Shown one piece after another: positions 10,010 to 28,310 of a stretch of DNA of 64,000 bases. The notes under the pieces are model-generated. The model was given only the letters and a program-made list of their open reading frames with translations. It had not been told where the DNA came from and ran no database searches. A program made the translations under genes and the position numbers. Position 1 is the stretch's first letter; each line of letters begins with the position of its first letter. The stretch lies in assembly GCA_018649885.1 (NCBI GenBank), contig JABIHA010000036.1, forward strand, positions 62,001 to 126,000, in the 5' to 3' direction. Source of the stretch: Bacteriovoracaceae bacterium (GTDB lineage Bacteria; Bdellovibrionota; Bacteriovoracia; Bacteriovoracales; Bacteriovoracaceae).

Positions 10010-11157
10010 CTATCCGCCTTAATCCATAAACTACCAATTGATGTCTTCTTGAGAAATTGTATCAAGCCGCTGGCAGCAGCTGTATTCATCAAGACATAGT
10101 AGTAGGGTATATACAGCAGTTTTATTCTTTTACCTTTTAAATAGCTAATTCCGCCTATGGCAGCTAGTGTATACATAAAGGCCTGGCAGTAAAAAGCAAA
10201 CTGGTAAATTGCAGCACCATTTTGGAATGCTAAGAAGGCACTAGATATGAAAAATAAGAAGAGATACAAAAACATAGTATATCTTAAAAATTTGTGGAAG
10301 AAAAAATGCAAAGAGAACTTGGAGTTTAGTGGATTGATAATCCAGGGGTACTGAGCAATAATTTGATAAGCTCCGCAAACCATTCTTCTTTTTACATTGT
10401 AATCATCTTTGAGTGTGACGCTAGCTTCTTCGTAAGTAATGGCATCTGTTTCATAAATAATGCGTTTGTCATTTTTTATTGTTTCAATAGTTAAAACCTG
10501 GTCATCATTAATAATGTCATCAGAAATACTAGGATACAGCTCTCTTCTTAGAGCAAAAATTTCTCCGTCTGCATTTGTTATTGAATAGGCATCAGATTGC
10601 GCCTTTTTCAAACGACTTTCAAGAGACCAAAAGAAATGATCCCCTAAAGAGGCTCCTCTTTTCGCATAGTTTTTTACAATATCTTTTCTACCGCAAACTC
10701 CTCCAATAGAAGAGTCGTGTAAGTTTTCTACAAGATGAATAATTGAATCATCACTAAAGTAGCTATTTGCATCTGAAAAAATGATGATCTCATTTGATGA
10801 ATTGGCCACGGCCCTATTAAGAGCAGCTGTTTTTCCTCTTCGAAGTGGTGAGTGAAGAGATTTGACTCCCTTGGTTTCATAAGACTTTGCAATTTTTTCA
10901 GTTCCATCATTCGAACCATCACTGACTACAATGATTTCAATTTTGTCTTTTGGATAGTTTAAAGAAAGTGTGTTTAATATTTTTTCTTCGATAACGGCCT
11001 CTTCATTATAAGCTGCAACAATATAGCTTACACTTGGCCTGTGCCCTTTTTTCTTGTAGTGCTTTTTCTTTCCAAATGCTCCCATGGATAAAAGAGCGGG
11101 GTATCCAATATAGTGCATGAAAATAATAAGCAAACTCAATATAAAGATGAGGGTCAT
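10006..11157 (-). CDS. GT2 family glycosyltransferase
   Basis: VAAYNEE, VSDGSNDGT, GKTAALN, FSDAN, DGEIFALRR, INDD; N- and C-terminal TM helices. Confidence 0.9.
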   Translation of the reverse strand: MTLIFILSLLIIFMHYIGYPALLSMGAFGKKKHYKKKGHRPSVSYIVAAYNEEAVIEEKILNTLSLNYPKDKIEIIVVSDGSNDGTEKIAKSYETKGVKSLHSPLRRGKTAALNRAVANSSNEIIIFSDANSYFSDDSIIHLVENLHDSSIGGVCGRKDIVKNYAKRGASLGDHFFWSLESRLKKAQSDAYSITNADGEIFALRRELYPSISDDIINDDQVLTIETIKNDKRIIYETDAITYEEASVTLKDDYNVKRRMVCGAYQIIAQYPWIINPLNSKFSLHFFFHKFLRYTMFLYLFLFFISSAFLAFQNGAAIYQFAFYCQAFMYTLAAIGGISYLKGKRIKLLYIPYYYVLMNTAAASGLIQFLKKTSIGSLWIKADR

Positions 11158-12347
11158 GATATCTCCTGACTGCTCCCAGAGGGGCCTTGTTTGAAAATAT
11201 TTAAATTTTTCTTAATACTAATTTTGATGTCAATCATTTCAATATTTTGCTTGTAAGCATTTTTACTAAGTTCAGAAAAGTTTAGCGAGTGGTTTAGCAT
11301 GGTATCAAGTAGCTGGTCTCTTTCGATGATAATAGCATTTCCACTGTGGAGGTCTAGTCCTCTGGCTCCGACTGAGGTCGTAATTATGGGAAGCTCGAAG
11401 TAGATATACTCATAATTTTTTACATTAGCACCACTACCACTCGTTACGAGGTTGAGTGCTTTATCGGCAGCGCATAGATAGGGGTAAACATCATCAACCC
11501 TCGAGGTGATGGTAAGAACTTCATCTTGGGAGCTTGCCTTTGATACACTACCGAGAACTACAATCTTGATGTTGTTTGCTTTGAGAACATGGAAGTTTTC
11601 CGTCACAAAACTCTTAATAAATTCAAGAGTCTCAATATTGGGACCAAAATAGCTCCCGCTGAAAATGTAAACATCGTCAATTTCACGAAAATCTAATTTT
11701 TTTCTAAACTCCTCTCTCAGAGAGGTCCTATCGTACTTGGCGAGTTCGCTAATATTTAATCCGTTAGGGATAATTGGACCGGGTAATTTCCTACCACACA
11801 ATTTGGATAATGCTTCACGGTCACCTTCAGTGCAATAGATACTGGTGTCACAGGAATCAATTGCTTTACTTTCTACAATTTGAACCAATTTTTTAAAAAC
11901 TCCACTGTCCCACAAATTAAATTCAGCATTGTGGGTATTGAGTATGAACTTCTTAGTGTGGTCGCTTTTTTGGGCGATTGGATAAAGATAAGGAAAATCT
12001 AGAATAATTGTTTGATGTGAGTCTATGAGATTTCTTAACTTCTTTGGAATTAAAAACTTCAGCACAAAACTTTGCCAAATAAAGGGGATGTGTAGCCTGT
12101 AGCATAAAAAGCAAATTAAACCCCAAACAGGGTTCATATATACGAATTCAGTGAGATTCAAGTTGGCACAGAATTTTGTGTCACCTTTTAACTTTAAGTA
12201 AGCATCCCTGCGGCCGGTAAGGCTGAAAATAGTTACTTCAAAACCACATTGTGTTAGGGACTCACAAATTGAGCTGCTTCTTTTTTGTCCTCCAGATTCA
12301 ACTGGATAGATTTGAAGACCGGAGATAAATAGAATTTTGTTATCCAA
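11154..12347 (-). CDS. GT4-like glycosyltransferase
   Basis: YPVESGGQKR, THNAE, IIPNG, GSGANVKNYEY, PIITTSVGARG. Confidence 0.85.
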   Translation of the reverse strand: MDNKILFISGLQIYPVESGGQKRSSSICESLTQCGFEVTIFSLTGRRDAYLKLKGDTKFCANLNLTEFVYMNPVWGLICFLCYRLHIPFIWQSFVLKFLIPKKLRNLIDSHQTIILDFPYLYPIAQKSDHTKKFILNTHNAEFNLWDSGVFKKLVQIVESKAIDSCDTSIYCTEGDREALSKLCGRKLPGPIIPNGLNISELAKYDRTSLREEFRKKLDFREIDDVYIFSGSYFGPNIETLEFIKSFVTENFHVLKANNIKIVVLGSVSKASSQDEVLTITSRVDDVYPYLCAADKALNLVTSGSGANVKNYEYIYFELPIITTSVGARGLDLHSGNAIIIERDQLLDTMLNHSLNFSELSKNAYKQNIEMIDIKISIKKNLNIFKQGPSGSSQEIS

Positions 12348-13815
12348 TTTGATATCTCCTTTTTAAAAAACTTACGATTGGTAATATACCTAAGAAATTA
12401 AGTATCACTGCTACTAAAATAGAAAATATCGATCCACCAATTACTAAGATGGTAAATCCATTTGAGATAGGAGCCGCCGTGACAATGAGTCTTGAAACGA
12501 TTCCTGCGGTAATCACACTGGCAAAGGTGATACCCATCTCTCCCCATGGAAGCAGCTCCTTGAAATCGGTTTTAAAAAATCCCTTAGCATCTTTTAAAAG
12601 CATTAATGAATACATGATTGTGCAAACGAATTTTCCAATGAGGCAGAAATATATATTGCCCAAATAGGCTCCAATACTTACTGCAATAACACTTGAGAAA
12701 ACATAGGTTCCGTATAAGGCTGCAAGCTTTTTGCCCTCATTAAAAACACGATATAGAACTTCTGCATTCATTGAGATTAAAATGAAATTAATAAGATAAA
12801 GTCTGAAAATCGGTGAGCTATTGAGATACTTTTTTGAAAAGATGAGTACAAAGAACTCATCTGCATAGAAGAAAAGAAATACCACCGGAATAATGAGGAT
12901 TAGAAAAATTTTCGAGATGACATCTTTCCAAATCTTTAATGCATCTGAATGTATTCCTTTTTTGGTTAACATATCTACGGCCATTAAATCCAAGTAGGTA
13001 TTGGCCATGGATGGAAGAAAAGGAATATCAAAGCAGCCAACACTATACATAGTAAATGTTCGAAGTGAAAAGAAAGAAGAAATAATCAATTTGTCATAGC
13101 TGAGGAAGGCTTCCGAAATTTTTGAAAACCCAATTGGAAGTCCATATCGAATTTGGGCCTTAAGTGTTGAAAAAATATGTTGATAGCTTCTCGTTAAATT
13201 CATCTGCTTAATCATATTCACATTAAATAGGATGAGTACTAGAAGTCGCAATGAGTAGAAACAGATAAGTCCCTGGATTACGATTTTGAGATCTTTGTAG
13301 AAGTAATACAATCCTACAATAATTATAGATTTACTTACCTCAGATACAATTTGCACGATCAAATTGAGTTTAATTTTATCAAGAACCATAAGGTAGTGTT
13401 CAAAATGTTGTGATGGCAGTGAGACCAAGACTAAGAAGAAAAATGATGGGTAAATATCTTTGATAGTTGGGTTATCTAGAAATGAAGATAGTTGGTCAGT
13501 AAAGAGAAAACCAATCCCCATTAATATTGCTACAGAGACAGTATTGAAAAACAGCACGTTAAGAGCATATATAGGGGTATCTTCAGGAGCCTGTTTCATG
13601 AAAAAGAAAAGGCCTTGATCAATTCCTAGCCCAAATACCTGGTAAGATAGAATCCAAATAAGCACTACCTGTTTGTAAGAGCCGTATTCCTCTACTAAGA
13701 GATATCTCGATAAGAAAATGGGTACGAAAAAAGTGAGTACAAAGCTAACCAGCTTTCCAGCTGAAAGAATAAGAGCTTTCTTATTTCTACTTTGGCTCAC
13801 CAGCTTTTCAACCAT
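12340..13815 (-). CDS. Wzx-type oligosaccharide flippase
   Basis: 491-aa polytopic membrane protein, IFLSRYLLVEEYGSY, located among glycosyltransferase genes. Confidence 0.85.
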   Translation of the reverse strand: MVEKLVSQSRNKKALILSAGKLVSFVLTFFVPIFLSRYLLVEEYGSYKQVVLIWILSYQVFGLGIDQGLFFFMKQAPEDTPIYALNVLFFNTVSVAILMGIGFLFTDQLSSFLDNPTIKDIYPSFFFLVLVSLPSQHFEHYLMVLDKIKLNLIVQIVSEVSKSIIIVGLYYFYKDLKIVIQGLICFYSLRLLVLILFNVNMIKQMNLTRSYQHIFSTLKAQIRYGLPIGFSKISEAFLSYDKLIISSFFSLRTFTMYSVGCFDIPFLPSMANTYLDLMAVDMLTKKGIHSDALKIWKDVISKIFLILIIPVVFLFFYADEFFVLIFSKKYLNSSPIFRLYLINFILISMNAEVLYRVFNEGKKLAALYGTYVFSSVIAVSIGAYLGNIYFCLIGKFVCTIMYSLMLLKDAKGFFKTDFKELLPWGEMGITFASVITAGIVSRLIVTAAPISNGFTILVIGGSIFSILVAVILNFLGILPIVSFLKRRYQIG

Positions 13816-14824
13816 GCTGATCCCTTCGAATTAGATTCCAATAAAAATAGGCTGGTGAGAAACGCCCTTTTTTATCGCAAACAAATTCATCATTAATATT
13901 AAATCTAGGGATCAGTCTATCTTCGTTTTGATCATTTTCAGTAAAGCTTTTGCACTCCGTAGAGAACTTATAGGAAAAATCAAAGCAGTTTACTGCTCTG
14001 ATAGAAGCTTGGTCATACAGTCCTGCAGGAAAAGCAAAGGATTTAAGGTCCACGCCTGTAAATGTCTCTAGCTTCGAAATCGATTGGTTGATATCACTTA
14101 GAGTTTGATCGTGGTCCATATATGGTAGAAATTGATGTGAGGAAGTATGGCAACCGATATGAACATTATCGCCTACAACCTTTTCTAACTCATTCCAGCC
14201 AAAGCTTTGATCTATGTCAATGCCAACGTGCTTTTTCTTTAACTTGTCTAAAATATGACAGCTCATTTCTTCTCTGGTTACACCATCCAGTGATTTGAGC
14301 GTATTGTAATCAAGGTGAGAAAAGTTTTGATCAATGGTAAGCTCGGCATTTGGAAAATACTCAAAAAATGAGAAATTAAGAATTTGATATTCGCCCAACT
14401 CTAAGGCCGTATCCCAAATATCCCACCAGTATGGTTTAGGGTTTTCGAGAAAATTGGTGACAGGGAAGAGTGAATAGGGAATTTCCCGTTGGTCACAATA
14501 AGGTAATGCACGGTCAAGGATTGCCTTATAAGCATCATCAAAAGTGAGGTGAAAATCAAGGTCTCGTTTGGCCTTGAAATTATCTATTTCTTCGATGGCC
14601 ACGATTTTGTCTCCGTGACCAGAAATGGTTTCAATAGTTGAAATAAAATTTTCATTACTTATGGATATGGCCTTCATTCCATGACTACTGCCATCTGTAA
14701 CCCGATGAAACATTAAAATATATTTTCTAGGTGAGAAGTAGTTTTTTAAACCTAAGTACCATTTTAAAGGCCCAAGGAAGTAGAGAGCCTTAATAATGGT
14801 ATCTACAATTGTATTACGCATCAC
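13808..14824 (-). CDS. Polysaccharide deacetylase (CE4/NodB)
   Basis: LMFHRV, LTFDDAY, IGCHTSSH, FAFPAG, IPRF. Confidence 0.88.
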   Translation of the reverse strand: MMRNTIVDTIIKALYFLGPLKWYLGLKNYFSPRKYILMFHRVTDGSSHGMKAISISNENFISTIETISGHGDKIVAIEEIDNFKAKRDLDFHLTFDDAYKAILDRALPYCDQREIPYSLFPVTNFLENPKPYWWDIWDTALELGEYQILNFSFFEYFPNAELTIDQNFSHLDYNTLKSLDGVTREEMSCHILDKLKKKHVGIDIDQSFGWNELEKVVGDNVHIGCHTSSHQFLPYMDHDQTLSDINQSISKLETFTGVDLKSFAFPAGLYDQASIRAVNCFDFSYKFSTECKSFTENDQNEDRLIPRFNINDEFVCDKKGRFSPAYFYWNLIRRDQHG

Positions 14825-15920
14825 TACCTCCTACTGACCTTGCCGAGAACTTCTTATTCAGGTTGATCGCTAACTCCCAAAGTCTTTTGTTTGATGAGAC
14901 TACTTCGTAGAGTCGGTTTACTTCCTTTGTGAATTCAAACTTGTACCTTTCATCACCTTCAAGAAAGTCATATATAAATGAATCAAGACCAATAAATTCT
15001 TTAGCATGCCTTATGCATAAAAGGTGTAATAGAAGTCCAGGGGAAAGTTGATAATGGTCAGTGGAAATTCCACCTTGGTAGAAAAAAATACTATCCATGT
15101 CGTGGTAGTAGTAATGAAACCCTATAAGTTGGTTACCTTCCTTGAGTAAGGCGAAAACCCAATTTCTATTAATAGAGCGTTTTAAAAAAAGATGGTGAAA
15201 ATTCTCAAATTCTTCTTCTGCAAAACCACCAACTACTTCTTTATCCTTAAACCGTGATTTCGCAAGTCTTGTAATATCTTCCCAAAGTGGTGATAATTTA
15301 TCGAAGTCGTTCACCCACTGGATTGTTAGATCACTATTTTGATCATAGTTTTTTAATATTCTTTTGAATTTATTTCTTTTCTTGCCCTTGGTGAGAGAAA
15401 GAAAATCATCTATTCCACCTATCCTTTGAATTCGTGGACAAATAGTTCCATCATAGCTTGTAAAAGATAGCGAAAGGCCTTGTTCGCAATAGTCAAAATA
15501 TTTTGCAAAGCTAGCGCTTAGCATCTTAAATCTAGTTAGTGACCACTTTGATTGATACTTTGATTTGAACGCTGTCCACACTGCCTTGTCTATTTTTCCC
15601 AGAAAGGCAGTGAGGTAGTTGGACCCAATACCTTCGTCACCAAGGAGTCGAAGTTCACTAACAGGGATAAAATAGCGGTGTGTTCTTAGAATATAAAACG
15701 GTAGAATCCCTACCGGACTATCTCCTTCATAGACTAGGTATATGAAAGGAGTTATCGTTTTATCTTGGAAATTGTCTAACCACGTTTTAATAAAATCGTA
15801 TTGTTGAAACACACAAGTTTCAGGACCACCATCAAGTGAGCGCCAAAGACTTATTAAAATAGGATTGTCGATTTCAACTTTTTGAAAATTCAAGTAGACT
15901 CCTATTTTTAAGTGAGACAA
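14814..15920 (-). CDS. CelD/BcsL-type GNAT acyltransferase
   Basis: VFQQYDFIKTW, VGILPF, FYQGG, LSPGLLLH, YDFLEGDERYK. Confidence 0.8.
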   Translation of the reverse strand: MSHLKIGVYLNFQKVEIDNPILISLWRSLDGGPETCVFQQYDFIKTWLDNFQDKTITPFIYLVYEGDSPVGILPFYILRTHRYFIPVSELRLLGDEGIGSNYLTAFLGKIDKAVWTAFKSKYQSKWSLTRFKMLSASFAKYFDYCEQGLSLSFTSYDGTICPRIQRIGGIDDFLSLTKGKKRNKFKRILKNYDQNSDLTIQWVNDFDKLSPLWEDITRLAKSRFKDKEVVGGFAEEEFENFHHLFLKRSINRNWVFALLKEGNQLIGFHYYYHDMDSIFFYQGGISTDHYQLSPGLLLHLLCIRHAKEFIGLDSFIYDFLEGDERYKFEFTKEVNRLYEVVSSNKRLWELAINLNKKFSARSVGGSDA

Positions 15921-17079
15921 TGGTGAAAATCAATATTGTGAACAAGAAGAAATCTTTATTCCAAATTCCAATAAATTGAATACAAAATATGAATAGAAAA
16001 AATGGAAGCAGAAATTCCCTAGATGTTTGTCTTAACTGAATAAAGATTTGTTTAAAAGCATAGAGAAAAATAGTAATTCCAATAACTCCAGTTTCAGCAA
16101 GAAGCTTAAGTGGAGTGTTATGAATTGTGAGGGCCCCATTTTGTGATAAAAACATAGGGTAACCTGTTAATTGGAAAAAATATCCAGCAGACCGGTCAAA
16201 TCCAACTCCCCAGATTGGATTTTTTGAAAATAAAATTAGACCTAACTCCCAAGTTTTAAATCGATCCATATTTGATTTATCAAAGATGTTTAGGAACCTC
16301 GATTGCAGGTCTTCACTAAGAAAGATGGGTGAGATGATTAAAAGAATAAATAAGACCAGCAAGACTGGTTTTTCAGTGATTTTTTTGCCAAACAATGCAA
16401 TCAGGCCTATGAAGAGTCCAATGATCCCCATTCTCGACTGAGTCATAAAAAGACAGAGTATTAAAAATAAAGACTCAAAAATTGTAACTGGGGCTACGGC
16501 CTTTTGTCTTAGAGGACCGATGAAAAGAGTAATCAAGAAAATCATAGATAAGAAATTGGGGTCACCAATTCTAATACCAATCACAGGTCTTAAGTCAAAG
16601 GTTCGTACTTCACCAAGGACCAGGTACCTATAAATGAAAACCATTCCAAGGACTACTGCGGATACACGGAACACCTTTATCAAAAGATCTTTCCTTTGCT
16701 GGTTATTGAAAAAGAAGGTAAATAGTGGGATTAAAAGTATGGTTTTTGTATAAGTTTTAAATTCGCCCAGAGCAAGTAAATTAGAGCTCTCATTTGCTGG
16801 ATATTGAAAATCAATGAGCATAAAAAATGAAATAACTAAAAAAAGTGCTCCATAGCCTTTAGTTATTGAAATAGGTAATTGTCGTACCATGCAAAACCAA
16901 ATGCCAGCGAAAGAAAAAGACGAAACAAAGAAGAGAAGCTCAGGTTTTACAATTTGAAGGACCTTGAAGTGAATATGAATATTTGAGATACTTAAAAATA
17001 GGTGTGCCAGCAGGGAAGTGATGACTCCCTTTTCAAAAGTACTCGGTAAAAGTAGCTGCTGCGTTCGCATTTTATTCAA
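15874..17079 (-). CDS. Wzy polymerase / O-antigen ligase family membrane protein
   Basis: Polytopic; GDPNF, TQSRMG, NPIWGVG, IHNTPL..LAETG. Confidence 0.85.
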   Translation of the reverse strand: MNKMRTQQLLLPSTFEKGVITSLLAHLFLSISNIHIHFKVLQIVKPELLFFVSSFSFAGIWFCMVRQLPISITKGYGALFLVISFFMLIDFQYPANESSNLLALGEFKTYTKTILLIPLFTFFFNNQQRKDLLIKVFRVSAVVLGMVFIYRYLVLGEVRTFDLRPVIGIRIGDPNFLSMIFLITLFIGPLRQKAVAPVTIFESLFLILCLFMTQSRMGIIGLFIGLIALFGKKITEKPVLLVLFILLIISPIFLSEDLQSRFLNIFDKSNMDRFKTWELGLILFSKNPIWGVGFDRSAGYFFQLTGYPMFLSQNGALTIHNTPLKLLAETGVIGITIFLYAFKQIFIQLRQTSREFLLPFFLFIFCIQFIGIWNKDFFLFTILIFTIVSLKNRSLLEFSKS

Positions 17080-17743
17080 ATTTCCTTTTTAAAAAAGGAA
17101 CCCCTAAAAGTATGATTCCTATAGTGATCAAGCTGGCCAGTAAATGAATCAGTAAGTAGTTTGGATAGCTCGGAGTGCTACCTGCTGTTGCAGGTTTTAA
17201 AACTTCCGTTTGTGTTCTCGCAATGAGTTTGTGATAGCGGATTTTTTCAGCAAGTTGCCTGCTAACAGTATCTTTTGTTAGCCGTTTTTCAATTTCTATT
17301 AAACCTTTTTTTGATTTCTCTTGTGCTAACAGCTCAAGCTGTTCCATCAGTGAGACTAGGAGGTTAATTCCAAAGCTTTTGTCAGGAGTGAGAAAAGAAA
17401 GCTCGTAGCGATTATCGTCACCACCAGTGAAATCAATTTTTAAATTTCTTAGTATTTTTTCAGTCTCAGAGGCCTTCCCAAATTTCTTAAGGATCGCCTG
17501 AAAACGCACAAAAGATGTTAACCTGTGCTTGAGTTCAAGCCCGTCTCTCACCCATACCCAGCGGTTGTGTGCCATTTCATAAACTTCATCTATGACTGGC
17601 GGATCAAACCTTTTTAGAAGGACAGATGCCTCAACATTGAATCTCGGTTCAACGCTTTTTAGTCCAATGTAAACACCAGTATTGACCGCTATACAGGCGA
17701 CTGCTGCTATCAACGCAATTTTTAAGTTCATTACCATTTCCAA
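17072..17743 (-). CDS. Small Wzz-like polysaccharide co-polymerase candidate
   Basis: Two terminal TM helices flank a helical periplasmic region; Pro-rich VLKPATAGSTPSYPN precedes the second TM. First gene of the minus-strand EPS operon. Confidence 0.55.
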   Translation of the reverse strand: MEMVMNLKIALIAAVACIAVNTGVYIGLKSVEPRFNVEASVLLKRFDPPVIDEVYEMAHNRWVWVRDGLELKHRLTSFVRFQAILKKFGKASETEKILRNLKIDFTGGDDNRYELSFLTPDKSFGINLLVSLMEQLELLAQEKSKKGLIEIEKRLTKDTVSRQLAEKIRYHKLIARTQTEVLKPATAGSTPSYPNYLLIHLLASLITIGIILLGVPFLKRKFE

Positions 17744-17937
17744 TTTTAGCTTCAGGCAAAACTAGTAAAATCATTGGGGACCTACTAGGTAGGCTGAAAT
17801 ATTTATAGGTAAAGTTTCCGGTGACGCAAGGCGTTGGGGTGGTAGGTATGTAAATTTTGTAACAGGCTTTACGAGGTGAGTTAGAAGGTCTAGATATTGG
17901 GCACACGAACATATTGCTTTTTTTTTGGGGAAAAAAG

Positions 17938-18741
17938 ATGTTGGATAAAAACCAAGCTAATTGGGGAAAACGAGAGTCCACAAAACAAAACCTGAGAGGG
18001 TTGGGCTTTGAATCTCTTGATGAATTATTTCGAAATGATGAAGGAATCTCACTATACGACCCTTCAGTTATTGAAGATGTCAGCTACCTAGAACTCGAAG
18101 GAAAAAAATTAGAAAAAGACGCCTTGGTTAAGGTGGGCGAAGTGATCCAATTTTTGGCAAGCTTCACTCTTTTCTTTCTATTTTTACCAATTGGCATTTT
18201 GATCGCTCTCATAATGAAAATTAGCTCACCAAGTGAGCCCATCTTTTTTACGCAAAAAAGAGTTGGCAAAGGTGGAAAAGAATTCGATGTCATTAAATTT
18301 AGAACAATGATTGTGGGTGCTGAAAATAAGACTGGAGCGGTACTATCGTGGAATGGTGATCCCAGAATAACTCCACTTGGAAGCTTTCTTAGAAAATCAC
18401 ATTTAGACGAAATTCCACAATTAATAAATGTACTTAAATCCGAAATGAATCTGATTGGGCCTAGACCTGAAAGACCCGAGTTTACAAATAGTTACAATAA
18501 AAGTGTCTATGGATACAAGTACAGAGAGTTAGTAAAACCAGGCATAACAGGCCTTGCTCAAATTGCAGCTGAATATGATGCAATTGCAGAAAAAAAGATA
18601 GTTTACGATTTATATTATATCAGACATAGGAATTCTTTGGGACTTCTCTTAACGATTGCGCTGAGCACGGCCTTAAAAATGTTGGCCTACCGCTCTCACG
18701 CAAAAATTGTGAAGAAGGCCATGAGGGTAAGTTACGTATGA
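17938..18741 (+). CDS. Priming undecaprenyl-phosphate sugar phosphotransferase (bacterial sugar transferase family)
   Basis: KFRTM, DPRITPLGSFLRKSHLDEIPQLINVL, GPRPERP, KPGITGLAQ. ATG 17938 preferred over TTG 17914. Confidence 0.92.
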   Translation: MLDKNQANWGKRESTKQNLRGLGFESLDELFRNDEGISLYDPSVIEDVSYLELEGKKLEKDALVKVGEVIQFLASFTLFFLFLPIGILIALIMKISSPSEPIFFTQKRVGKGGKEFDVIKFRTMIVGAENKTGAVLSWNGDPRITPLGSFLRKSHLDEIPQLINVLKSEMNLIGPRPERPEFTNSYNKSVYGYKYRELVKPGITGLAQIAAEYDAIAEKKIVYDLYYIRHRNSLGLLLTIALSTALKMLAYRSHAKIVKKAMRVSYV

Positions 18742-19787
18742 AAAATTTATTAATTACCATATTACTTTTAACATCGGCTTCAGCATTTAGTGTTGAAGTT
18801 ATGATTTTTGGTGAACAAAATGACAAAGATCAGTGTCAAAATAGCTCTCCATATTTTCTTTATCCACACTTGAAAGATAGTGTAGATTTAGTTCTTAAGT
18901 TTTCGAGGGAAGACTTAAATGAGTTAGGGCAAATCAAATCAATTGGAGCCTATCAATTTTCGCAGAGAAAAAGTAAGATTAGAAAACTGCACTACGATAC
19001 GAGCCCTCAATTTAAATGTATTAAAATGTGTGCTGAGGGAAGATTGTACAGGCTTACAATCCCCAACAATAAATTTAAAAGATCAAAAGAAGAAGTAACT
19101 CATCTTCAACTCAATCTACAAGTGAAGGGAGAACATGCAGATCAAACGAAATCCTTCTCCTTTGCCTTTGTTAAAGAAGGCCATGAAATATTAGTAGAAA
19201 AGCCTGATTTAACAACTTTAATTAGTGAAGAAGTATCAGTGGTTTCCGAATTGTACGACAACAGGCAATCAAATGAGATTTTAGAAATTACATATCAAGA
19301 TTACGTAAGTGATAAATTAAAAAGAGAAGACAAAAGCTCAATGCAGATAAATTTTGCTGCTCAAATGGAGCAGGGGCAGCCGGTTAGCTTTATGCCAATG
19401 ACAGCAGATTCCTTTGATTCAGCAGGTGGACAAGGAGGGCTTCTTAGTTACTTTAATCCTATTCCAAACACAAAGGATATTTTTTCCTTAGCAAATCCGC
19501 TGACTCAAGGGGTTGCGGTATCTCTTTTTGTCAATATTGGCCAATCTCATTCCACATCAATGGATTGGAAGAAAGCATTTTTCACAAAATCAAAATTTGT
19601 CTTACTTCAAGAAGAGTCAGGGCTCATTGTTGAAGTGCTAACTCTACTTCACTCAAAATTCTCTAAATATGGGGCCAATAAATGTGGCTTTCTTTCAGAG
19701 GTTGGTGAGATAGCAGTCATACAACACCTTACACATTACGAAATGATACTTGTAGAACCTGATGAACCTTTAAATATTAGTTTATAA
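18738..19787 (+). CDS. Secreted hypothetical protein, paralogue of 19801..20754
   Basis: Signal peptide; shares N.CG....VG.........T.Y....V(E/D)P with the next gene; 4-nt overlap with the priming transferase. Confidence 0.75.
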   Translation: MKNLLITILLLTSASAFSVEVMIFGEQNDKDQCQNSSPYFLYPHLKDSVDLVLKFSREDLNELGQIKSIGAYQFSQRKSKIRKLHYDTSPQFKCIKMCAEGRLYRLTIPNNKFKRSKEEVTHLQLNLQVKGEHADQTKSFSFAFVKEGHEILVEKPDLTTLISEEVSVVSELYDNRQSNEILEITYQDYVSDKLKREDKSSMQINFAAQMEQGQPVSFMPMTADSFDSAGGQGGLLSYFNPIPNTKDIFSLANPLTQGVAVSLFVNIGQSHSTSMDWKKAFFTKSKFVLLQEESGLIVEVLTLLHSKFSKYGANKCGFLSEVGEIAVIQHLTHYEMILVEPDEPLNISL

Positions 19788-19800
19788 AGTTGGAGAGAAA

Positions 19801-20754
19801 ATGAAAACATTAACCCTATTTTTATTCTTAGTGACAATTTCGCAAAATGTTTTTGCTGAAATTGAAGTAGTTATTGATGCCGGTGTTGACGGACATGATG
19901 ATGCACTTTGTGAATTTCCAAATGCCGTATTTAATCCAGACAAAAAGCAGAAAGTGAAATTTAAAATTCTTGGTGCTGAAAAAGGTGACAGTTTTGTAGT
20001 GACCTACTCTAGTAATGGATACAATGACATTAGCCTTGAAAAGTATAAAACATTTGAAACAAAGAAAGATTCATTTAAAGTTCCAGTTTATCCAGTAAAT
20101 GATGATCTTCAATTTGCAGTAAATACTGTAATTGTTGTAAAAAAAGAAAGAGATGGGGAATTAGCAGAAACAGCATCAAAAGAATTTCGCGTTTATAAGA
20201 GATTAATCTTCCAAAAAACGAAAGATACTAGTCTTGATTGCTTTCAACGATTTAGAACTGAAAAGCTAACAGGACTAATCCATAATACTACTTCAACTGA
20301 AAGAGTCATCAATGTTTCAGAGCAAGTGACTAATTCAGTATATGAGACAAAGAGTAAATCAACATCATTTTTCTTACGTCTAAGTCTTATGAATTTAGTT
20401 GATATGGGGCCAACATTCAATTCGATGAAATCTGTGGCCAAAGGAACTGTAAAAACTGTCTCTAGAAACTTAACTACAAGAATTCAGCCAGGAGAGACAA
20501 TTATCTTGGGTAAGCAACAAACACTTTTTAAAGACCACTACAATGTATATAGACCCAATCTTTGTGGGACACATGAAAATGTAGGAACTGGGGTTTTAAA
20601 TTATTACAGAACTAATTACCCTGCTGTAGTTGTTGATCCAATGGCAGACAATCCATTTGGATCTCTAGGTGTAGGATACGATGACACGTTAAATACATGT
20701 GGTGTTGATGAGTTTGAAGGTGAAGAGATTATCTTTGACCTTGGTAATATTTAA
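19801..20754 (+). CDS. Secreted hypothetical protein with aerolysin/ETX-MTX2-like Ser/Thr-rich stem
   Basis: Signal peptide; GGAG RBS; HNTTSTERVINVSEQVTNSVYETKSKSTSFF...FNSMKSVAKGTVKTVSRNLTTRIQPGET. Confidence 0.65.
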   Translation: MKTLTLFLFLVTISQNVFAEIEVVIDAGVDGHDDALCEFPNAVFNPDKKQKVKFKILGAEKGDSFVVTYSSNGYNDISLEKYKTFETKKDSFKVPVYPVNDDLQFAVNTVIVVKKERDGELAETASKEFRVYKRLIFQKTKDTSLDCFQRFRTEKLTGLIHNTTSTERVINVSEQVTNSVYETKSKSTSFFLRLSLMNLVDMGPTFNSMKSVAKGTVKTVSRNLTTRIQPGETIILGKQQTLFKDHYNVYRPNLCGTHENVGTGVLNYYRTNYPAVVVDPMADNPFGSLGVGYDDTLNTCGVDEFEGEEIIFDLGNI

Positions 20755-20765
20755 AAGGAAAAGTA

Positions 20766-22433
20766 ATGAGAGGTTTTTGGTTTTCACTATTACTTACGAG
20801 TAATGTGTTTGCTCTATCCGAAGGTTTTACGCCAGTGGCTAAAACCTTCAATGAAGCAGCTGATATTAAGGTTTCAGTCGACTTAAGTTCTGCAAATGGC
20901 GCCCATAAAATCAATTCAAAATTTTATGGCAGCCAGATTTCTAACTTTGTTCCCAATCCAAGCTCAAGTGTAATGAAGGGCCTTGGTCTGGGAATGATTC
21001 GTATTGGTGGAAACCTTTACGATGGGTTTAACTGGAAAAATGGATTCTTGTATATCCCCTTAGACGTTCCCAAAAAAAGTATCTCCTTTGAAGAATTTGC
21101 ACGGTATTTCAAGGCCAATGATGTAGAGCCCATATTCCAAGTTAATTTTTTAGGAAGGGCGGTTCGAAAACGACTACCAGAAGACGAGACAACACCAAGT
21201 GGCTATGTACTTAGAGATTTTGCCGATGAGAGCTTTGCTGCTGATTTGGTGAAACATCTTAATGGCAGCTTAGGGCTAGGGGTAAAACATTTTTGCATGG
21301 GTAATGAACCTATGCAGTGGATGGACACTCATATTGAAACGTATCCCTTTGAAGAGCCTCTTACTGCTGACCAATATATTGATAAATATGTGAGTTACGC
21401 TCTTGCCATGAGGAAGGCGCAAGATGAAATAAGTGGAAATGCAAATGATATTAAACTATGGGGACCTGAAATCTCCATTAGCTATTATGATTGGCAGACA
21501 GGGAATATGACCAAAGATTGCGAATGGACCGATATCTGGGGACAGATTTCTTGTCACTATGGCAAAAATGATGAGTTTGATCAATTTCTTCCCTATATGT
21601 TTCATCGATTATCTGAAATTGAAAAAGACAAAAAGTTGAATCCAAGAGGTTACAAACTACTCGATTACGCTAGTTTTCACTACTATCCTAATTTTAGAAC
21701 AGAAATTTCTGATGTGGACAGTATTATAACTCACGAAAATGGAAAACAGAAAATTCAACAAATTCTAGATCACACTCGTGTTCTTGATGATCCAGGATTT
21801 ACAAATACAATTGATATTAGCTCATATCGAAATTTTTCTCCAAATATTCTGGGAAGAATGAGTAAGTGGATGAAACAGTATTATCCAGATGCTAAGCTTG
21901 CTCTTTCTGAGTTTGCAGTAGATTCATTTGATACAAGTTATGGCTACCACCCCATCATAAGACCACTTTATATGGCCGATATCATTGGAAGACTTGCAGG
22001 CGCTGGAGTTTCATTTTTTGGTAGAGCATTTCTAAACACCTATGATCCATATAAAATACCTTGGGTTTTAATTGAAAATGATAGAACGACTCCTCTTTAC
22101 GATTTATATGCTCAGTTCACTCACAACTTTGTTGGTAGCATTTTGAATGTAGAGGTTGATTCAAATAAGTGGGTCAGTGTATATGCCTCTTTAAAAGGTG
22201 AAGATAAAAAGCAGATAACTGTTGTTGTCGTTAATAAGTCACCTGCATCACAAAGTGTCAGTATAAAGATAAAGGGTAGCAGTAAAGAACATCCAGCTGT
22301 AAATATAGATCAACCTGGTTGGTCAGTACGTTTTTATAAAATTCCAGCGAGAGGAAAGAAAATACAGCACACTACTTTTGGACCATCTGATCTAGGAATT
22401 GAAGCAGATCTGTTTTACCTGGATCATCTGTAA
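20766..22433 (+). CDS. Secreted GH44-like (clan GH-A) endoglycanase
   Basis: IRIGGN...FNW, MGNEP..W..TH (acid/base), SFHYYP, LSEF (nucleophile), C-terminal beta-sandwich (VVVVNKS). Confidence 0.75.
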   Translation: MRGFWFSLLLTSNVFALSEGFTPVAKTFNEAADIKVSVDLSSANGAHKINSKFYGSQISNFVPNPSSSVMKGLGLGMIRIGGNLYDGFNWKNGFLYIPLDVPKKSISFEEFARYFKANDVEPIFQVNFLGRAVRKRLPEDETTPSGYVLRDFADESFAADLVKHLNGSLGLGVKHFCMGNEPMQWMDTHIETYPFEEPLTADQYIDKYVSYALAMRKAQDEISGNANDIKLWGPEISISYYDWQTGNMTKDCEWTDIWGQISCHYGKNDEFDQFLPYMFHRLSEIEKDKKLNPRGYKLLDYASFHYYPNFRTEISDVDSIITHENGKQKIQQILDHTRVLDDPGFTNTIDISSYRNFSPNILGRMSKWMKQYYPDAKLALSEFAVDSFDTSYGYHPIIRPLYMADIIGRLAGAGVSFFGRAFLNTYDPYKIPWVLIENDRTTPLYDLYAQFTHNFVGSILNVEVDSNKWVSVYASLKGEDKKQITVVVVNKSPASQSVSIKIKGSSKEHPAVNIDQPGWSVRFYKIPARGKKIQHTTFGPSDLGIEADLFYLDHL

Positions 22434-24436
22434 TGAGAGTTCTAATAATAGTTTTGATTACTGTATTGAATTCATCGTATGGTGCTGCTCTTTCCAAATT
22501 AAAATCACAAAGATTTAACTTACCTCTAGTTGCTCATGGCAAATATGAGATTTATACTCTTAAAAAATTAACAGGTTTAGAGCGAGAAGGAAATTTCTTG
22601 AAGAGATTTTACGAAGTTTTAATCACTGACCGTAAAAACTTTGATGTTCATCTAAATAAAAAGCAACGAATTGTTCTCGATGAGCTTATTGTACGAGTAG
22701 GAATTTTAAAAGATGGTGGTTACAAAGAATCATTTGTTCGAAGCATTGAAAATGAAAAACACGAGCTTTTAATTCAAATTGTTGAACTTGCTAGACTACA
22801 TGAGCTATTAGTTCATCACCTACCTTATTATATGGATAAAAGGCCAAGGCCAAATCACCCATTCTTCTATGGAAAGGGCCATGCCTATTGGAATGCTTTT
22901 TCACTGAGAATTCGTGCATCAAGGCCTTACGGGAAGGCGCTGAATTTAGTAGATTCGGATCAACCTATCGATCAAAGAGATCCAAGAAATTCAGTTTTCT
23001 GGAATAGAAGAAAGAAGGCTGAAGAGACATATCATTATGGTAAAAAAAGAGATGAGCTCTGTAGTAAAGAGCGAATTTATTTCTTCAAGGAAAGGAAAAA
23101 TATTCCAGAGTATGGTGGGGGACGAAATCCAGGCGTAAAGCTATACACATATTTTGATGACCCCAAAAAAGGTCGTGACAAAGACAGTTATTCAGCAAAA
23201 TTTGCTATGAAATATCAAAACTCCAAAGGGGCCCTTTTTCATAAACAGGAAGCTTATATTGAAACAGGTCTAAACGGTCTTTATAAGGCAATGGGTTACA
23301 ATACTGATAAAGGATATTATTGCGATTCTATTGTAATGAGGTTTCATCCTAAGCTATTCAATTTGTCTGAGAGTAAGCTTATTCAACTCAATATTTTCGA
23401 CTTAAGGCTTTATTATAAAAGCTTGATACTTGTTGATGGTAGTGAAGTAGCGTTTGAAGATGCTGTTGATGTCTATAGGTATATGGATCATTCAAAAATC
23501 AATAAAATCAATATTTATGGCTCTCCAGTAGAATCCTATGTGATTAAAGAACAATATGTGGGAAAAATTGAATTTATCCGCACATATGGAATATACCTCG
23601 AAAAGAGATCTAAAAAGTATACACGTGTTTTTAGCTGGAATAGAACGGGCCTTTCCCATCAAGACAGAAGAGAAATACGAGCACTTTTACTTATTGATAG
23701 TTGGTTTGGGAATGTGGATAATTTTGGATTCAACCTAAAAGTTGTCTTTAAAAATGTTTCTGACAAAACTAAGCCTAGGAAAATGTCTTTTGTTCTAGTT
23801 GACAGCGGTGACTCCCTTGCTCCACATGATCTTCAAGTTGATTATCTGATTGAGGGTGGATATTTACCACTAGAGCTTCGTGAAGCACTCAAGGCCTCAA
23901 AATTTGAGTTATTCAATGAATTGAGCGAACCCTATAAAAATCTTTCTGATATAGAGGTACAAATTAATCGTTTTGGTTGGAGTATCTTTGGTGATAGCTC
24001 AGAAAGCAAAACTCTAGGTAGTTTTGAATCAGAGGAAAAGGCCATCGAGAAAGTTCGAGATGATTTAATTTTATTTCGCTCCCTTAGGCTCGAAAAATTA
24101 ACTCCGTATTTAACTATTGATGATCTGAAGTGGACCACTCGTTTGATTGCAGGCCTCACTGAAAAACAAATTCTTCATTCCTTTTCAACTTCTGGAATTG
24201 GATATGCTGGAGCTGTGCTTGTTACTGAAAAATTAATTTCACGAAGAGACCAATTGGTAAGGTATTTTGGACTTGATGGTGAGATACCACTACTTAGACC
24301 GGCGGGAGCTAATAAAGAATTGAATGTAAAAGGGGATGGCCATATTCGAATTGAGAAAAAATCGAAGAGCAAAAAAGTGTTGATACCCTCTTATGGTCAC
24401 AGTGTTGAAAAGGGCACTTTTAAAACAGCGAAATGA
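22433..24436 (+). CDS. Secreted atypical protein-kinase-like fold protein (HipA/PI3-4K/CotH-like)
   Basis: Signal peptide; GGGRNPG, SAKF, EAYIE...AMGY, REIRAL...WFGNVDNFGFN, LVDSG, KLISRR. Confidence 0.55.
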   Translation: MRVLIIVLITVLNSSYGAALSKLKSQRFNLPLVAHGKYEIYTLKKLTGLEREGNFLKRFYEVLITDRKNFDVHLNKKQRIVLDELIVRVGILKDGGYKESFVRSIENEKHELLIQIVELARLHELLVHHLPYYMDKRPRPNHPFFYGKGHAYWNAFSLRIRASRPYGKALNLVDSDQPIDQRDPRNSVFWNRRKKAEETYHYGKKRDELCSKERIYFFKERKNIPEYGGGRNPGVKLYTYFDDPKKGRDKDSYSAKFAMKYQNSKGALFHKQEAYIETGLNGLYKAMGYNTDKGYYCDSIVMRFHPKLFNLSESKLIQLNIFDLRLYYKSLILVDGSEVAFEDAVDVYRYMDHSKINKINIYGSPVESYVIKEQYVGKIEFIRTYGIYLEKRSKKYTRVFSWNRTGLSHQDRREIRALLLIDSWFGNVDNFGFNLKVVFKNVSDKTKPRKMSFVLVDSGDSLAPHDLQVDYLIEGGYLPLELREALKASKFELFNELSEPYKNLSDIEVQINRFGWSIFGDSSESKTLGSFESEEKAIEKVRDDLILFRSLRLEKLTPYLTIDDLKWTTRLIAGLTEKQILHSFSTSGIGYAGAVLVTEKLISRRDQLVRYFGLDGEIPLLRPAGANKELNVKGDGHIRIEKKSKSKKVLIPSYGHSVEKGTFKTAK

Positions 24437-25497
24437 AAATACTACACCTTGTTGAATATTTAGAGTTAGGCGGAATTGAAAGGCTACTTTCAACTTTTTC
24501 TGATTACGCAAATGATAAGGCAGTCTTTTTTGCCTATGAAATGGATGGTCCCAAAGGAATCTCTCTGGAGATGGCCCGTAAGGGAAGAAAAGTTTATTTT
24601 TATAAAAAACAGGCCGGTCATGATGGCTGCGTAGTAAAGAAACTTAAAAAAATTATCAAAGAAGAGAATATAAGTACTATTCATACTCATGATTTTGGAC
24701 CTATGGAATATGCCCTACGTCTTAAATTACTATTTCCTAAAATACAGTTAGTTCATACTCAACATACGCTACACCATTTTTTATCCAACAAAAAATATAC
24801 TTATTTTTTCCAGTTTGCTGCTCTATTTTACAAAAAGATAGTTTGCGTTAGTGAGAGCGTAAAAAAAGCACTTCAAAAAAAATTTGTCATTCCACTTCGA
24901 AACCTTGAAGTTATTTACAATGGAATTGCTCTTGAAAAATTTCCATGGAATGAGTCGGTTTATTTTTCTAATATATTGAGATTAGTTGGTGTCAGCCGAA
25001 TTTCTGCTGAGAAAAACCTCGAACATACAATAAAGAGCCTCTATTACCTTAAGCAAAGAGGCATCGAGTTTGAGTACAGGCATATTGGTTCAGGTGAACA
25101 AGAATATGAGGAAAAAATAAAAAAATCTGTAACAGACTTAGGACTGGATCAAAATATAAAATTTTTAGGGCACCAGGAAAATGTGTCACCCTTCTTAGTT
25201 GATGCTCAGGTTTTTATTTCAAGTTCTTTTACTGAAGGGCATCCAATTTCTGTGGTTGAGGCACTGGCATCTGGCTTAACTTGTTTTTTGAGTGATATTG
25301 ATCCTCATGCTATTTTTAAAAATAGTAACGTACATTATTTTTCACTTGAAAATGGATCAATGCTAGTTGATCTCCTCTCGGAATACACAGAAGATAGTGA
25401 AAAATATGGAGCCTCTCTTGCAAGAGGTAGAGATTTTATCAAAAATTATTTTTCAATTGAAACAACACTAGATGAATATATGAAAATTTATAGGTGA
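24433..25497 (+). CDS. GT4 family glycosyltransferase
   Basis: MKILHLV..LELGGIE, VHTQH, VCVS, VIYNGI, SRISAEK, EGHPISVVEALASG. Confidence 0.92.
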   Translation: MKILHLVEYLELGGIERLLSTFSDYANDKAVFFAYEMDGPKGISLEMARKGRKVYFYKKQAGHDGCVVKKLKKIIKEENISTIHTHDFGPMEYALRLKLLFPKIQLVHTQHTLHHFLSNKKYTYFFQFAALFYKKIVCVSESVKKALQKKFVIPLRNLEVIYNGIALEKFPWNESVYFSNILRLVGVSRISAEKNLEHTIKSLYYLKQRGIEFEYRHIGSGEQEYEEKIKKSVTDLGLDQNIKFLGHQENVSPFLVDAQVFISSSFTEGHPISVVEALASGLTCFLSDIDPHAIFKNSNVHYFSLENGSMLVDLLSEYTEDSEKYGASLARGRDFIKNYFSIETTLDEYMKIYR

Positions 25498-26339
25498 GTG
25501 TAATGAAAGAAGTCATGATCTCTATCGATGTTGAAGACTGGTTTTGCGTCAAAAATATGGCAAAATCAATTCCCTATGGTACTTGGGATCAGCATGAGCT
25601 TAGAATAAACCGCGGTTTAGATTTTATCTTAGCAGAGTTTAAAAAAAGAAAAATTCGTGGAACATTTTTTATGCTGGGATGGCTAGCAGACAAGTGTCCA
25701 GGAATTGTAGAAAAAATTGAAAGTGAAGGTCACGAAGTGGCAACTCATGGATATAATCACCAAACGATTGATACAATGGAGCAGCAAACTTTTAAGAATG
25801 ATTTGCGCAAGTCTGTCGATGTAATAAACAACCAATTAAAATTCTCTAAAGTGGGCGGTTATCGTGCACCAAGCTTTTCTATTACAGAAAAAACTTGGTG
25901 GGCGCTAGATTGTTTAAAAGAGCTCGGTTTGAAATACGATTCTAGTATTTATCCAGTTTCTCATCCCGATTATGGCGTAAGAGACTTTGGCCGAGATATT
26001 AAAAATATTGAAGGTATTGTTGAAGTTCCTATGAATTATGCTGAAATACTTGGTCTTCGAATACCTATCTCTGGAGGAGGCTACTTTAGACTAATGCCTT
26101 ACTTTATTTTTAAGCTTTTTTTAAAGGCCGCATTGAAAAAAAGGCATGTGGTTCTTTATTTTCATCCCTGGGAGTTTGACCCCGAGCAGCCAAGAGTGAA
26201 ATTACCTCTTTTGAAGAGTTTTCGTCACTACGTAGGCCTCTCTAGTAACCGTTCTAAATTTATTAAATTACTCGATGATTTTAATTTTACGACTATGAGT
26301 GCTTATCTTTATAATGAAGAAATGCCATTATCTAGGTGA
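25494..26339 (+). CDS. Polysaccharide deacetylase, XrtA/PEP-CTERM-system type (DUF3473)
   Basis: SIDVEDWF, GTFFMLGW, HEVATHG, GYRAPSFS, YDSSIYP, GGGYFRL, YFHPWEFDP. Confidence 0.9.
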   Translation: MSVMKEVMISIDVEDWFCVKNMAKSIPYGTWDQHELRINRGLDFILAEFKKRKIRGTFFMLGWLADKCPGIVEKIESEGHEVATHGYNHQTIDTMEQQTFKNDLRKSVDVINNQLKFSKVGGYRAPSFSITEKTWWALDCLKELGLKYDSSIYPVSHPDYGVRDFGRDIKNIEGIVEVPMNYAEILGLRIPISGGGYFRLMPYFIFKLFLKAALKKRHVVLYFHPWEFDPEQPRVKLPLLKSFRHYVGLSSNRSKFIKLLDDFNFTTMSAYLYNEEMPLSR

Positions 26340-27334
26340 TAATGGAGTCACAAAAGAGGATTCAATTTTTGACTAAATTCTTCACATTCTCACTTTTATC
26401 ACTATTCATGGTCTCCTGCGTATGGGCAGGCTCAAGTATGAAATTAACTCTCGATGGGAAAGTTTTAAAAAATAAAAATGGTGAAACCGTTACCCTTCGA
26501 GGCGTTGCCATTGCAGATCCACAACACCTGGATTTAAAAACTTGGGATAGGCCTGGTGTTAACTCTGTTTCAAGGGTCAAAGAAATTATTTCGCTTTTAA
26601 AAGTGAATGTAATTCGACTGCCAATACTGCCGGAGTCAAGTGAGGGGACTGGTTTTTTAAATTCGCCAAAAGCCTACTTTAATAATCACCTGCTTCCTAT
26701 TTTAGAATATTGTTTAACAAAGAAAATTTATGTGATTGTAGATCTTCACTATGTTGAAGATTTTACAAAAGTAAAAAAGAAGGCGCATAAATTTTGGAAG
26801 ATTCTAGCACCAAAGCTTTCGGGCTTTCCCCATATTATTTATCAGGCATTTAATGAGGCCACAACTCCTCACAACTGGGAACAATATAAGGACCAAATTG
26901 CAAGACCAATAATTAAAATCATAAGAAAATCAAATCCAGAGGCAATTGTAATCGTGGGAAGTCCAAGATGGAACACACTCTCAGTTGAAGTAAATAATTC
27001 ACCACTTGATGAAAAAGGGGTGCTGTATTCTGTTCATATATATCCAAATGAATGGAAGAGTGCGAATTTTAATACCAAATACTTACCACTACTCAAAAAT
27101 CATCCTGTGATTTTAAGTGAGTGGGGGTTTAGTCAAAATCCAAAACTTGCTAAACTCTACGGAGACAAAGATAGCTATGCCTATCCGCTGTTAAAAGTTT
27201 TCGAAGAAAATGGTGGTCATCATGTGGCCTGGGTTTATGATTCTCTATGGGTACCGTCCCTTTTGGAAAAAAATCATGTGATGTCTCAGTCATTTGGCGA
27301 ATTTTTCAAAAATTTTATCAACTCTAAAAAATAA
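26336..27334 (+). CDS. GH5 (cellulase family) glycoside hydrolase
   Basis: VTLRGV, NVIRLP, YVIVDLH, FNEA (acid/base), HIYP, LSEWGF; N-terminal signal. Confidence 0.88.
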   Translation: MIMESQKRIQFLTKFFTFSLLSLFMVSCVWAGSSMKLTLDGKVLKNKNGETVTLRGVAIADPQHLDLKTWDRPGVNSVSRVKEIISLLKVNVIRLPILPESSEGTGFLNSPKAYFNNHLLPILEYCLTKKIYVIVDLHYVEDFTKVKKKAHKFWKILAPKLSGFPHIIYQAFNEATTPHNWEQYKDQIARPIIKIIRKSNPEAIVIVGSPRWNTLSVEVNNSPLDEKGVLYSVHIYPNEWKSANFNTKYLPLLKNHPVILSEWGFSQNPKLAKLYGDKDSYAYPLLKVFEENGGHHVAWVYDSLWVPSLLEKNHVMSQSFGEFFKNFINSKK

Positions 27335-28109
27335 AGTAGTTAAGACCTAAGCCGATTTCAAGGGAATCGTCTGGATGGGTGGTAAAAAGTTTGCGATTAT
27401 CACGTGAGCGAATGAGTGAACTGTATTCGATATATGGTGAAATGGTGAAGTTTCCTCCACTAACAATATCCAAACTGATACTGGCGCCGACAGAGTCATC
27501 TCGGTTATTTGATTTGTGATAAAGGGACTCAAGCCAGCTTGCGTTCAGAGTTAAAGAAAGGCTTTCAGTGGCATCAAATCTAGCTCCAGAAGTGGATTTC
27601 AGCTCAAATATAGTGTCACCGTAGGTTATATCATCTCTTACTAGGTAGGAGTACCTACCCTTGAAAAAGGGAGTTACAAGACCAAATTCTCTGCTCTCTA
27701 ATTTAAGCTCGTAACCTAACTCAGCTTGTTTTCTAGTCTCTTTCAGCATTTCTTTATGAGTGGCGGAAACAAGAATTATGGCCTGTTCTACTGAGATAGA
27801 ATTTAGCTTACTTTTCACTCTGCCCTCTACTGCTATATTTTCTATTCCCGACAGATCTTTGCCGTGGGCAAGGTAGCGCTGAAAAATAGCTGGAGTAAAT
27901 GCTAAACTGGTATTTTTTGACAAAAATGTCAGTGCTGTTGGATAGAGTGTGCTTTTTAGCCCATCAATTTTTTGATAGTAACTGCTTCCCCAAACCCAGT
28001 TTCTTTCACTAATAGTGGACCCATACAAATTAAGATGGATATTGGCCTCTGCTTTTGCAGTCAAACACGCCATGGTAAGTGCTACAATTAATTCTGTCTT
28101 TTTGAGCAT
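27324..28109 (-). CDS. Putative outer-membrane beta-barrel protein
   Basis: Signal peptide (AKAEA), alternating amphipathic strands, aromatic C-terminus IGLGLNYFIF. Confidence 0.6.
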   Translation of the reverse strand: MLKKTELIVALTMACLTAKAEANIHLNLYGSTISERNWVWGSSYYQKIDGLKSTLYPTALTFLSKNTSLAFTPAIFQRYLAHGKDLSGIENIAVEGRVKSKLNSISVEQAIILVSATHKEMLKETRKQAELGYELKLESREFGLVTPFFKGRYSYLVRDDITYGDTIFELKSTSGARFDATESLSLTLNASWLESLYHKSNNRDDSVGASISLDIVSGGNFTISPYIEYSSLIRSRDNRKLFTTHPDDSLEIGLGLNYFIF

Positions 28110-28310
28110 AAGAAGTTTTACTTTTTCTGGCAGGCTTTAGCCAGATCAGCCTGTAAAAGTTACCTTGATTAGTGCTTATTTTTGAATAAACCTCGCTCCT
28201 AACTCCTCAAAATCAAAGGCCTGTTTTTTAGAAGATATTACACACCCCGATGACATATTGGAGCGTCTTGGTTAATTTTTGGTTATCGAAAAATCTAAAG
28301 GGGAATAAAT

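Follow-up and report, generated by a model that had tools for sequence, protein, structure and literature searches.

An aerolysin-like protein pair of Bdellovibrionota polysaccharide clusters as a possible accessory to exopolysaccharide export

Why would a polysaccharide gene cluster encode, side by side, two exported proteins that look like pore-forming toxins? The question arises from a 64,000-nucleotide stretch of a Bacteriovoracaceae genome (GenBank assembly GCA_018649885.1, contig JABIHA010000036.1, positions 62,001 to 126,000; hereafter the window), in which two neighbouring genes, here termed A and B, follow the gene for a priming glycosyltransferase. Proteins of the aerolysin fold are known as weapons on other cells. 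An earlier sequence-only reading of the window had likened A and B to them and had offered three roles: a two-component pore substituting for Wza, a matrix fibre protein, or a toxin. Because their relatives lie almost always inside polysaccharide clusters, we regard the pair as likelier to be part of the sugar-export machinery than a weapon. The role that we favour, tentatively and on the strength of structure models, is that of a ring-shaped periplasmic conduit or scaffold into which A and B would co-assemble as an accessory to exopolysaccharide export.

The A–B pair and its predicted fold

Both tandem open reading frames announced by the earlier reading are present, along with all eight anchor sequences that it quoted from the two proteins. 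The pair and its predicted parts, in amino acids (aa) where lengths are given, are as follows:

18738..19787, plus strand: gene A (P0001), 349 aa, with a probable Sec signal peptide, an immunoglobulin (Ig)/FN3-like domain and a predicted aerolysin-type core
18786..19172, plus strand: A, predicted Ig/FN3-like β-sandwich (model residues 1-129)
19173..19784, plus strand: A, predicted aerolysin-type core (structure model)
19260-19604, plus strand: A, stem/insert, 115 aa, predicted local confidence (pLDDT) mostly <50
19801..20754, plus strand: gene B (P0002), 317 aa, with a probable Sec signal peptide, an Ig-like domain, a predicted aerolysin-type core and four invariant cysteines
19858..20199, plus strand: B, predicted Ig/PKD/FN3-like domain (model residues 1-114)
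20284..20490, plus strand: B, stem (N162-P230), a putative insertion loop between two 20-residue strands, with a hydrophobic tip at about 20362-20418

Judged by their family profiles, A and B are distantly related paralogues. Pairwise similarity is marginal (BLASTP E 3e-4, 14/46 identical). As profiles, the two families align along the greater part of each (probability 98.0, E 1.9e-13), and a second comparison gave a probability of 96.5 (E 9e-10), with 15/15 column-shuffled controls at or below 0.3. Taken by part, core against core reached 95.8, and N-terminal domain against N-terminal domain just 16.9. Four cysteines are present in most of the A and B sequences checked; the core of the window's A contains a long non-conserved insert and is missing the family's last Cys-containing segment. 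Over 22 pairs the median identity is 40% for B and 21% for A, which makes B roughly twice as conserved, and the correlation between A and B identities (Spearman 0.90) reflects kinship. A tree of A and B together, from a quick search and with long branches, was not used for the order of events.

An aerolysin-type fold, as proposed from the letters, is supported by the structure models of both proteins, which are all-β. Foldseek placed aerolysin, the lamprey immune protein and Dln1 among the best matches of the B model, folded as core and Ig domain together (E 6e-5 to 3e-4), at template-modelling (TM) scores of 0.11-0.22 and root mean squared deviations above 20. The A model gave nothing at E 0.001 or better, an Atlas search with a homologous A no usable match, and the viral structure library generic β-rich matches only for B; in VIA searches with B the lists were taken up by the Ig domain, so that the aerolysins missing there carry no weight. 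The aerolysin-family profiles PF01117, PF03318 and PF18063 matched none of P0001-P0004 nor any of 50 B proteins, and language-model neighbours include aerolysin families only at 0.76-0.79, under a level often reached by shuffled proteins. Set against aerolysin, lysenin (5gaq), the lamprey immune protein (5zu4) and Dln1 (4zno), A and B are without sequence match to Pfam or PDB members of that family, carry a head that structure searches identify as Ig-like where theirs is a lectin, and form a constant tandem pair with one stem degenerate, resident in polysaccharide clusters.

Among 236 other genomes of the same family 11 have a homologue of B, as do 10 of 400 genomes of the phylum. An exhaustive search gave 49 proteins, of which roughly 30 approach full length; the lowest-scoring matches were mostly long Ig-repeat proteins, which were excluded from the family set. 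All sources are Bdellovibrionota (Bacteriovoracaceae, Oligoflexia, Bdellovibrionales) except one labelled Proteobacteria. Neither A nor B matched Pfam, NCBIfam or PDB sequences, save for one weak Ig match in the PDB, and word-indexed homologue searches returned the genome's own copies and one other protein. A search of the open-access literature gave no description of the pair. The C-terminal third of P0051, a 502-aa lipoprotein-like protein, matches the B core alone (probability 95.6), which suggests that the family extends beyond the loci described here.

Linkage to polysaccharide clusters

The link of the pair to polysaccharide loci is strongly supported. Such clusters hold 24 of the 25 B-containing loci collected from 23 genomes, in keeping with the linkage expected by the sequence-only reading; the remaining locus begins inside A, and its downstream genes are unrelated. 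The counts make the loci look more independent than they are, since many of the genomes are closely related; they come from four families of the phylum. Wherever upstream sequence is available (24 loci), A stands directly before B. Immediately upstream of A lies a glycosyltransferase gene in 21/23 cases (19 of the NfrB-type GT2 kind, 2 for priming enzymes) and a glycoside hydrolase gene in the other 2, and a hydrolase or DUF2334 deacetylase follows no more than two genes after the pair in 22/24 loci. The pair thus accompanies two unrelated pathway types, Wzx/Wzy (the window and genome G027) and synthase.

A second, partial copy of the operon, with priming glycosyltransferase, A, B and GH44 hydrolase, lies on another contig of the same genome (G000:C82, L010:6683-15215, minus strand). 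Its order is priming glycosyltransferase, A, B, GH44, a 665-aa protein of no family and an Ig-GH5 protein, with identities to the window of 55% for A, 77% for B and 55-77% over the first five genes. In G469 (L046:11104-13668) the NfrB-type GT2 and A form one 855-aa frame, a sole case that may be an effect of assembly or point mutation.

A-like genes with a probability of 99.96 to family A also occur as the last gene of a different four-gene operon for exported proteins (L076:5671-10914, L077:7871-12597, L078:9819-14461, L079:5850-10639). Preceding them are genes for proteins of about 650 aa (with a coiled-coil-like middle), 140-165 aa, and 410-460 aa (often lipoprotein-like); the operon's proteins have no Pfam matches, and it possibly encodes another envelope or secretion complex.

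Asymmetry of the two stems

Between the conserved Asn and the PG motif the B stem measures 69-77 residues (standard deviation 2.2, n=50), and that of A 51-118 (standard deviation 17, n=26), with the loop nearly absent in four. The Ser/Thr-rich alternating stem with an amphipathic tip that had been ascribed to both proteins is borne out for B, at 30% Ser/Thr vs 10% elsewhere, and hardly for A (17% vs 13%), whose insert is modelled as disordered. In the B columns the alternation of hydrophobic residues beside the hydrophobic tip extends for no more than about three positions each way; farther out, it is broken by two double-hydrophobic spots. An aerolysin-type insertion loop, with alternating polar and non-polar residues and S/T-rich flanks, is therefore present in B, though as a short stretch, and not in A. 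Because the stem of B is fixed and B the more conserved protein, A being variable, B is a candidate membrane-anchoring or pore subunit and A its putative partner; the symmetric two-component pore envisaged earlier is doubtful because A's hairpin is not conserved.

A complex prediction for the homologous A–B pair of genome G128, not the window's own, scored 0.50 vs 0.00 for the best of 3 controls (runs 0.18, 0.50 and 0.63; contact agreement at least 0%; partner pLDDT at least 72). The mark applied is reached by 116/157 solved complexes and 2/215 mismatches; passes at or below 0.60 comprise just 18 solved complexes and both mismatches, and a pass at the 0.50 level is oftener wrong than right unless the complex was likely beforehand. 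The prediction gives weak support to co-assembly of A and B.

Exit routes for the polymer

Known synthase systems combine a tetratricopeptide repeat (TPR) scaffold with a 16-18-strand barrel (accessible parts of PMC9601211 and PMC8669472). According to the former, Myxococcus pairs a periplasmic ring of the outer-membrane polysaccharide export (OPX) type with a barrel, and OPX proteins are not part of synthase systems. The window's own genome (92% complete; control 4/14) has no match to the OPX profile PF02563, nor do 4/5 other carriers of the pair. In G027 a single 835-aa frame (L013:15937-18441) joins a Wzx-like flippase to an OPX protein (Poly_export plus SLBB). A and B themselves differ from OPX proteins such as Wza: neither has a match to Poly_export (with its PES motif) or SLBB (PF02563/PF10531) or a lipoprotein signal, and the predicted fold is unrelated. 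They likewise differ from TPR scaffolds in their all-β models and would be functional stand-ins at most.

The 19 synthase-type loci resemble E. coli NfrA/NfrB/WecB (NGR) in having an NfrB-like GT2 (PRK14716/NfrB models, E ~1e-94 to 1e-113, under the cut-off), usually with WecB, hydrolases and a barrel-like protein. This last, an exported protein of about 250 aa with alternating strands and a C-terminal aromatic residue, is encoded in 16/19 loci; the proteins fall into three groups (mutual similarity probability 50-97; profile built from 15) and are too small to include the TPR part of E. coli NfrA as given in the accessible part of PMC8669472. Unlike NGR, the loci have a GT2 of about 470 aa with A and B right behind it; the cluster in the window itself belongs to the Wzx/Wzy type.

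An NfrB-type module is also found in loci where the pair is missing. It comprises a small barrel-like gene, GT2, DUF2334 deacetylase, GH113 and WecB (L131-L148, 17 genomes of the phylum), and its alternative accessory component can be an exported protein of 575 aa or one of 610 aa; no family match was obtained for either. Among 18 pair-less synthase loci sampled, 15 have the barrel-like gene and 7 the 575-aa protein, which is exported and largely helical-looking. The latter was not found in A–B loci, in the window's own genome or in 5/5 A–B genomes, in a genome search without positive control. As fusions or relatives of A and B, the 575-aa and 610-aa proteins and the 650-aa protein of the A-only operon were rejected (probability ≤4%).

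Further genes of the window

The rest of the cluster, with a priming enzyme whose gene overlaps A, as had been noticed from the sequence, by 4 nucleotides, is laid out as follows:

17914..18741, plus strand: priming phosphoglycosyl transferase, WcaJ/EpsZ-like (PF02397, TIGR03025-like)
20766..22433, plus strand: exported GH44 glycoside hydrolase, also a weak match to the EpsB model
22433..24436, plus strand: 667-aa exported protein of no known family, with a 72% identical copy in the second A–B locus
24433..27334, plus strand: GT4 glycosyltransferase, polysaccharide deacetylase (TIGR03006, over cut-off) and GH5 hydrolase
27324..28109, minus strand: 261-aa candidate outer-membrane β-barrel with signal peptide and C-terminal aromatic residue, from sequence only
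8873..17743, minus strand: divergent polysaccharide operon with a Wzy_C protein, GNAT, deacetylase, and GT4 and GT2 enzymes

The divergent operon probably includes a co-polymerase-like gene, and a Wzx-like flippase was assigned to it by similarity to a homologous locus. In its EpsZ-like and EpsB-like genes the window resembles the Eps system of Myxococcus. The 261-aa barrel candidate has no family match, and the barrel candidates of the window show no detectable kinship with the barrels of synthase loci. Just past the cluster, a 285-aa protein (31057-31914, minus strand) has weak barrel matches (DUF6733, E 3e-5; OMP_b-brl, E 0.002). The 667-aa protein (22433-24436), found solely in the genome's two own loci, carries a D-x-W-x-G-N-x-D...D-x-G-x-S-L pattern, presumably reminiscent of atypical kinase-like folds. 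Coverage of 16500-28500 extends to all 30 bins in three other marine DNA runs; no substitution is listed for them, and the sole listed difference is a 1-base insertion at 17917 in one contig. One metatranscriptome has 8 short contigs over the same interval, including 4 that fall in B and the end of A; this does not demonstrate transcription.

Discussion

How might such a pair serve export? A and B, with a lipobox in 0/46 sequences, would leave the cytoplasm by Sec. B subunits would extend their stems into a β-tube, the short hydrophobic tip of which may anchor in a membrane or dock on the separate small outer-membrane barrel, and A, with its degenerate stem, may cap or nucleate the ring on the synthase or polymerase side. 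Such a tube could then steer the polymer past the hydrolase and deacetylase encoded alongside, a task that known systems assign to TPR scaffolds or to periplasmic OPX rings. The periplasmic oligomer and separate barrel proposed here are like the composite EpsY/EpsX translocon of Myxococcus, as described in the accessible part of PMC9601211.

Counted in favour of a conduit or scaffold are the gene order, the two pathway types, the fixed B stem, the G469 fusion, barrels without room for TPR, the 575-aa protein in 7/18 pair-less loci, the lack of an OPX match in the window's own genome and, weakly, the G128 prediction. Several observations weigh against it. The second A–B locus has no flippase, polymerase or barrel nearby, and in G027 some 6 kb separate an OPX gene from the A,B,B triple. 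The NfrB-type synthase is found in 71/401 genomes of the phylum, only 10 of these with the pair, so the pair is dispensable; from several sampled synthase loci both the pair and the 575-aa protein are missing, and the latter has no significant Pfam match, TPR included. Four genomes have A-like genes without B or polysaccharide genes. Because the barrels persist, the pair is mostly absent from synthase genomes and G027 has an OPX protein, an accessory role as periplasmic conduit or scaffold fits better than that of sole pore.

The matrix idea of the sequence-only reading is unlikely, and survives best among the alternatives. The pair would be secreted and form a structural or polymer-binding part of the biofilm matrix or cell coat, as rings or fibres made by strand pairing, the model being the matrix proteins co-encoded with Vibrio polysaccharide. 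This leaves unexplained the fixed-length B stem with its hydrophobic tip, the constant place right behind a membrane glycosyltransferase and the in-frame join of synthase and A; the match to RbmA is a common-fold score.

Less likely still is the main proposal of the sequence-only reading, in which B would itself be the exit pore in place of Wza, entering the outer membrane from the periplasmic side with the help of A. B's predicted aerolysin-type core with a conserved amphipathic loop would suit this, the window's Wzx/Wzy-type cluster needs an exit, and the missing PF02563 matches in its own genome and most other carriers agree with substitution for Wza. That claim is compatible with the other observations only in part: most synthase-type loci, with the pair or not, have a barrel of their own, G027 has its OPX protein, synthase systems do without OPX anyway (accessible part of PMC9601211), and about three alternating hydrophobic positions per strand beside the tip are short for a bilayer.

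That the pair is a binary aerolysin-type toxin aimed at grazers, prey or competitors, whose only tie to the polysaccharide would be shared regulation, is improbable. The hosts belong to a largely predatory phylum, and BinA/BinB (Tpp) are likewise two paralogues in tandem that share an aerolysin-type core and function jointly. Membrane attack is the known role of the fold (accessible parts of PMC3110756 and PMC12691639). Tpp proteins, however, have a β-trefoil head (accessible part of PMC9784298) where A and B have an Ig-like one with no recognisable lectin, and their context is insecticidal; the fixed order within polysaccharide clusters, the slow evolution of B and the lack of any Pfam toxin family match among 50 B proteins also speak against a toxin. 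Any other mechanism seems very improbable.

That the family is hard-wired into two unrelated types of polysaccharide cluster suggests a housekeeping function at the envelope of the producing cell. In its boldest form, and again tentatively, the aerolysin fold may have been domesticated in Bdellovibrionota as a two-subunit, self-inserting trans-envelope exopolysaccharide channel, one more kind of export apparatus, that serves both Wzx/Wzy and synthase pathways in place of TPR or OPX scaffolds. The asymmetry between a fixed B stem and a degenerate A stem yields directly testable predictions. The NfrB-type module is itself widespread in the phylum and apparently undescribed, with interchangeable accessory proteins. 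Taken as proteins, A and B amount to a variant within the aerolysin kind, and their architecture would be new if they serve in secretion. If they do form an export conduit or pore, they would add to the ways in which polysaccharide crosses the Gram-negative envelope and would be a natural case of a toxin fold converted to a secretion part.
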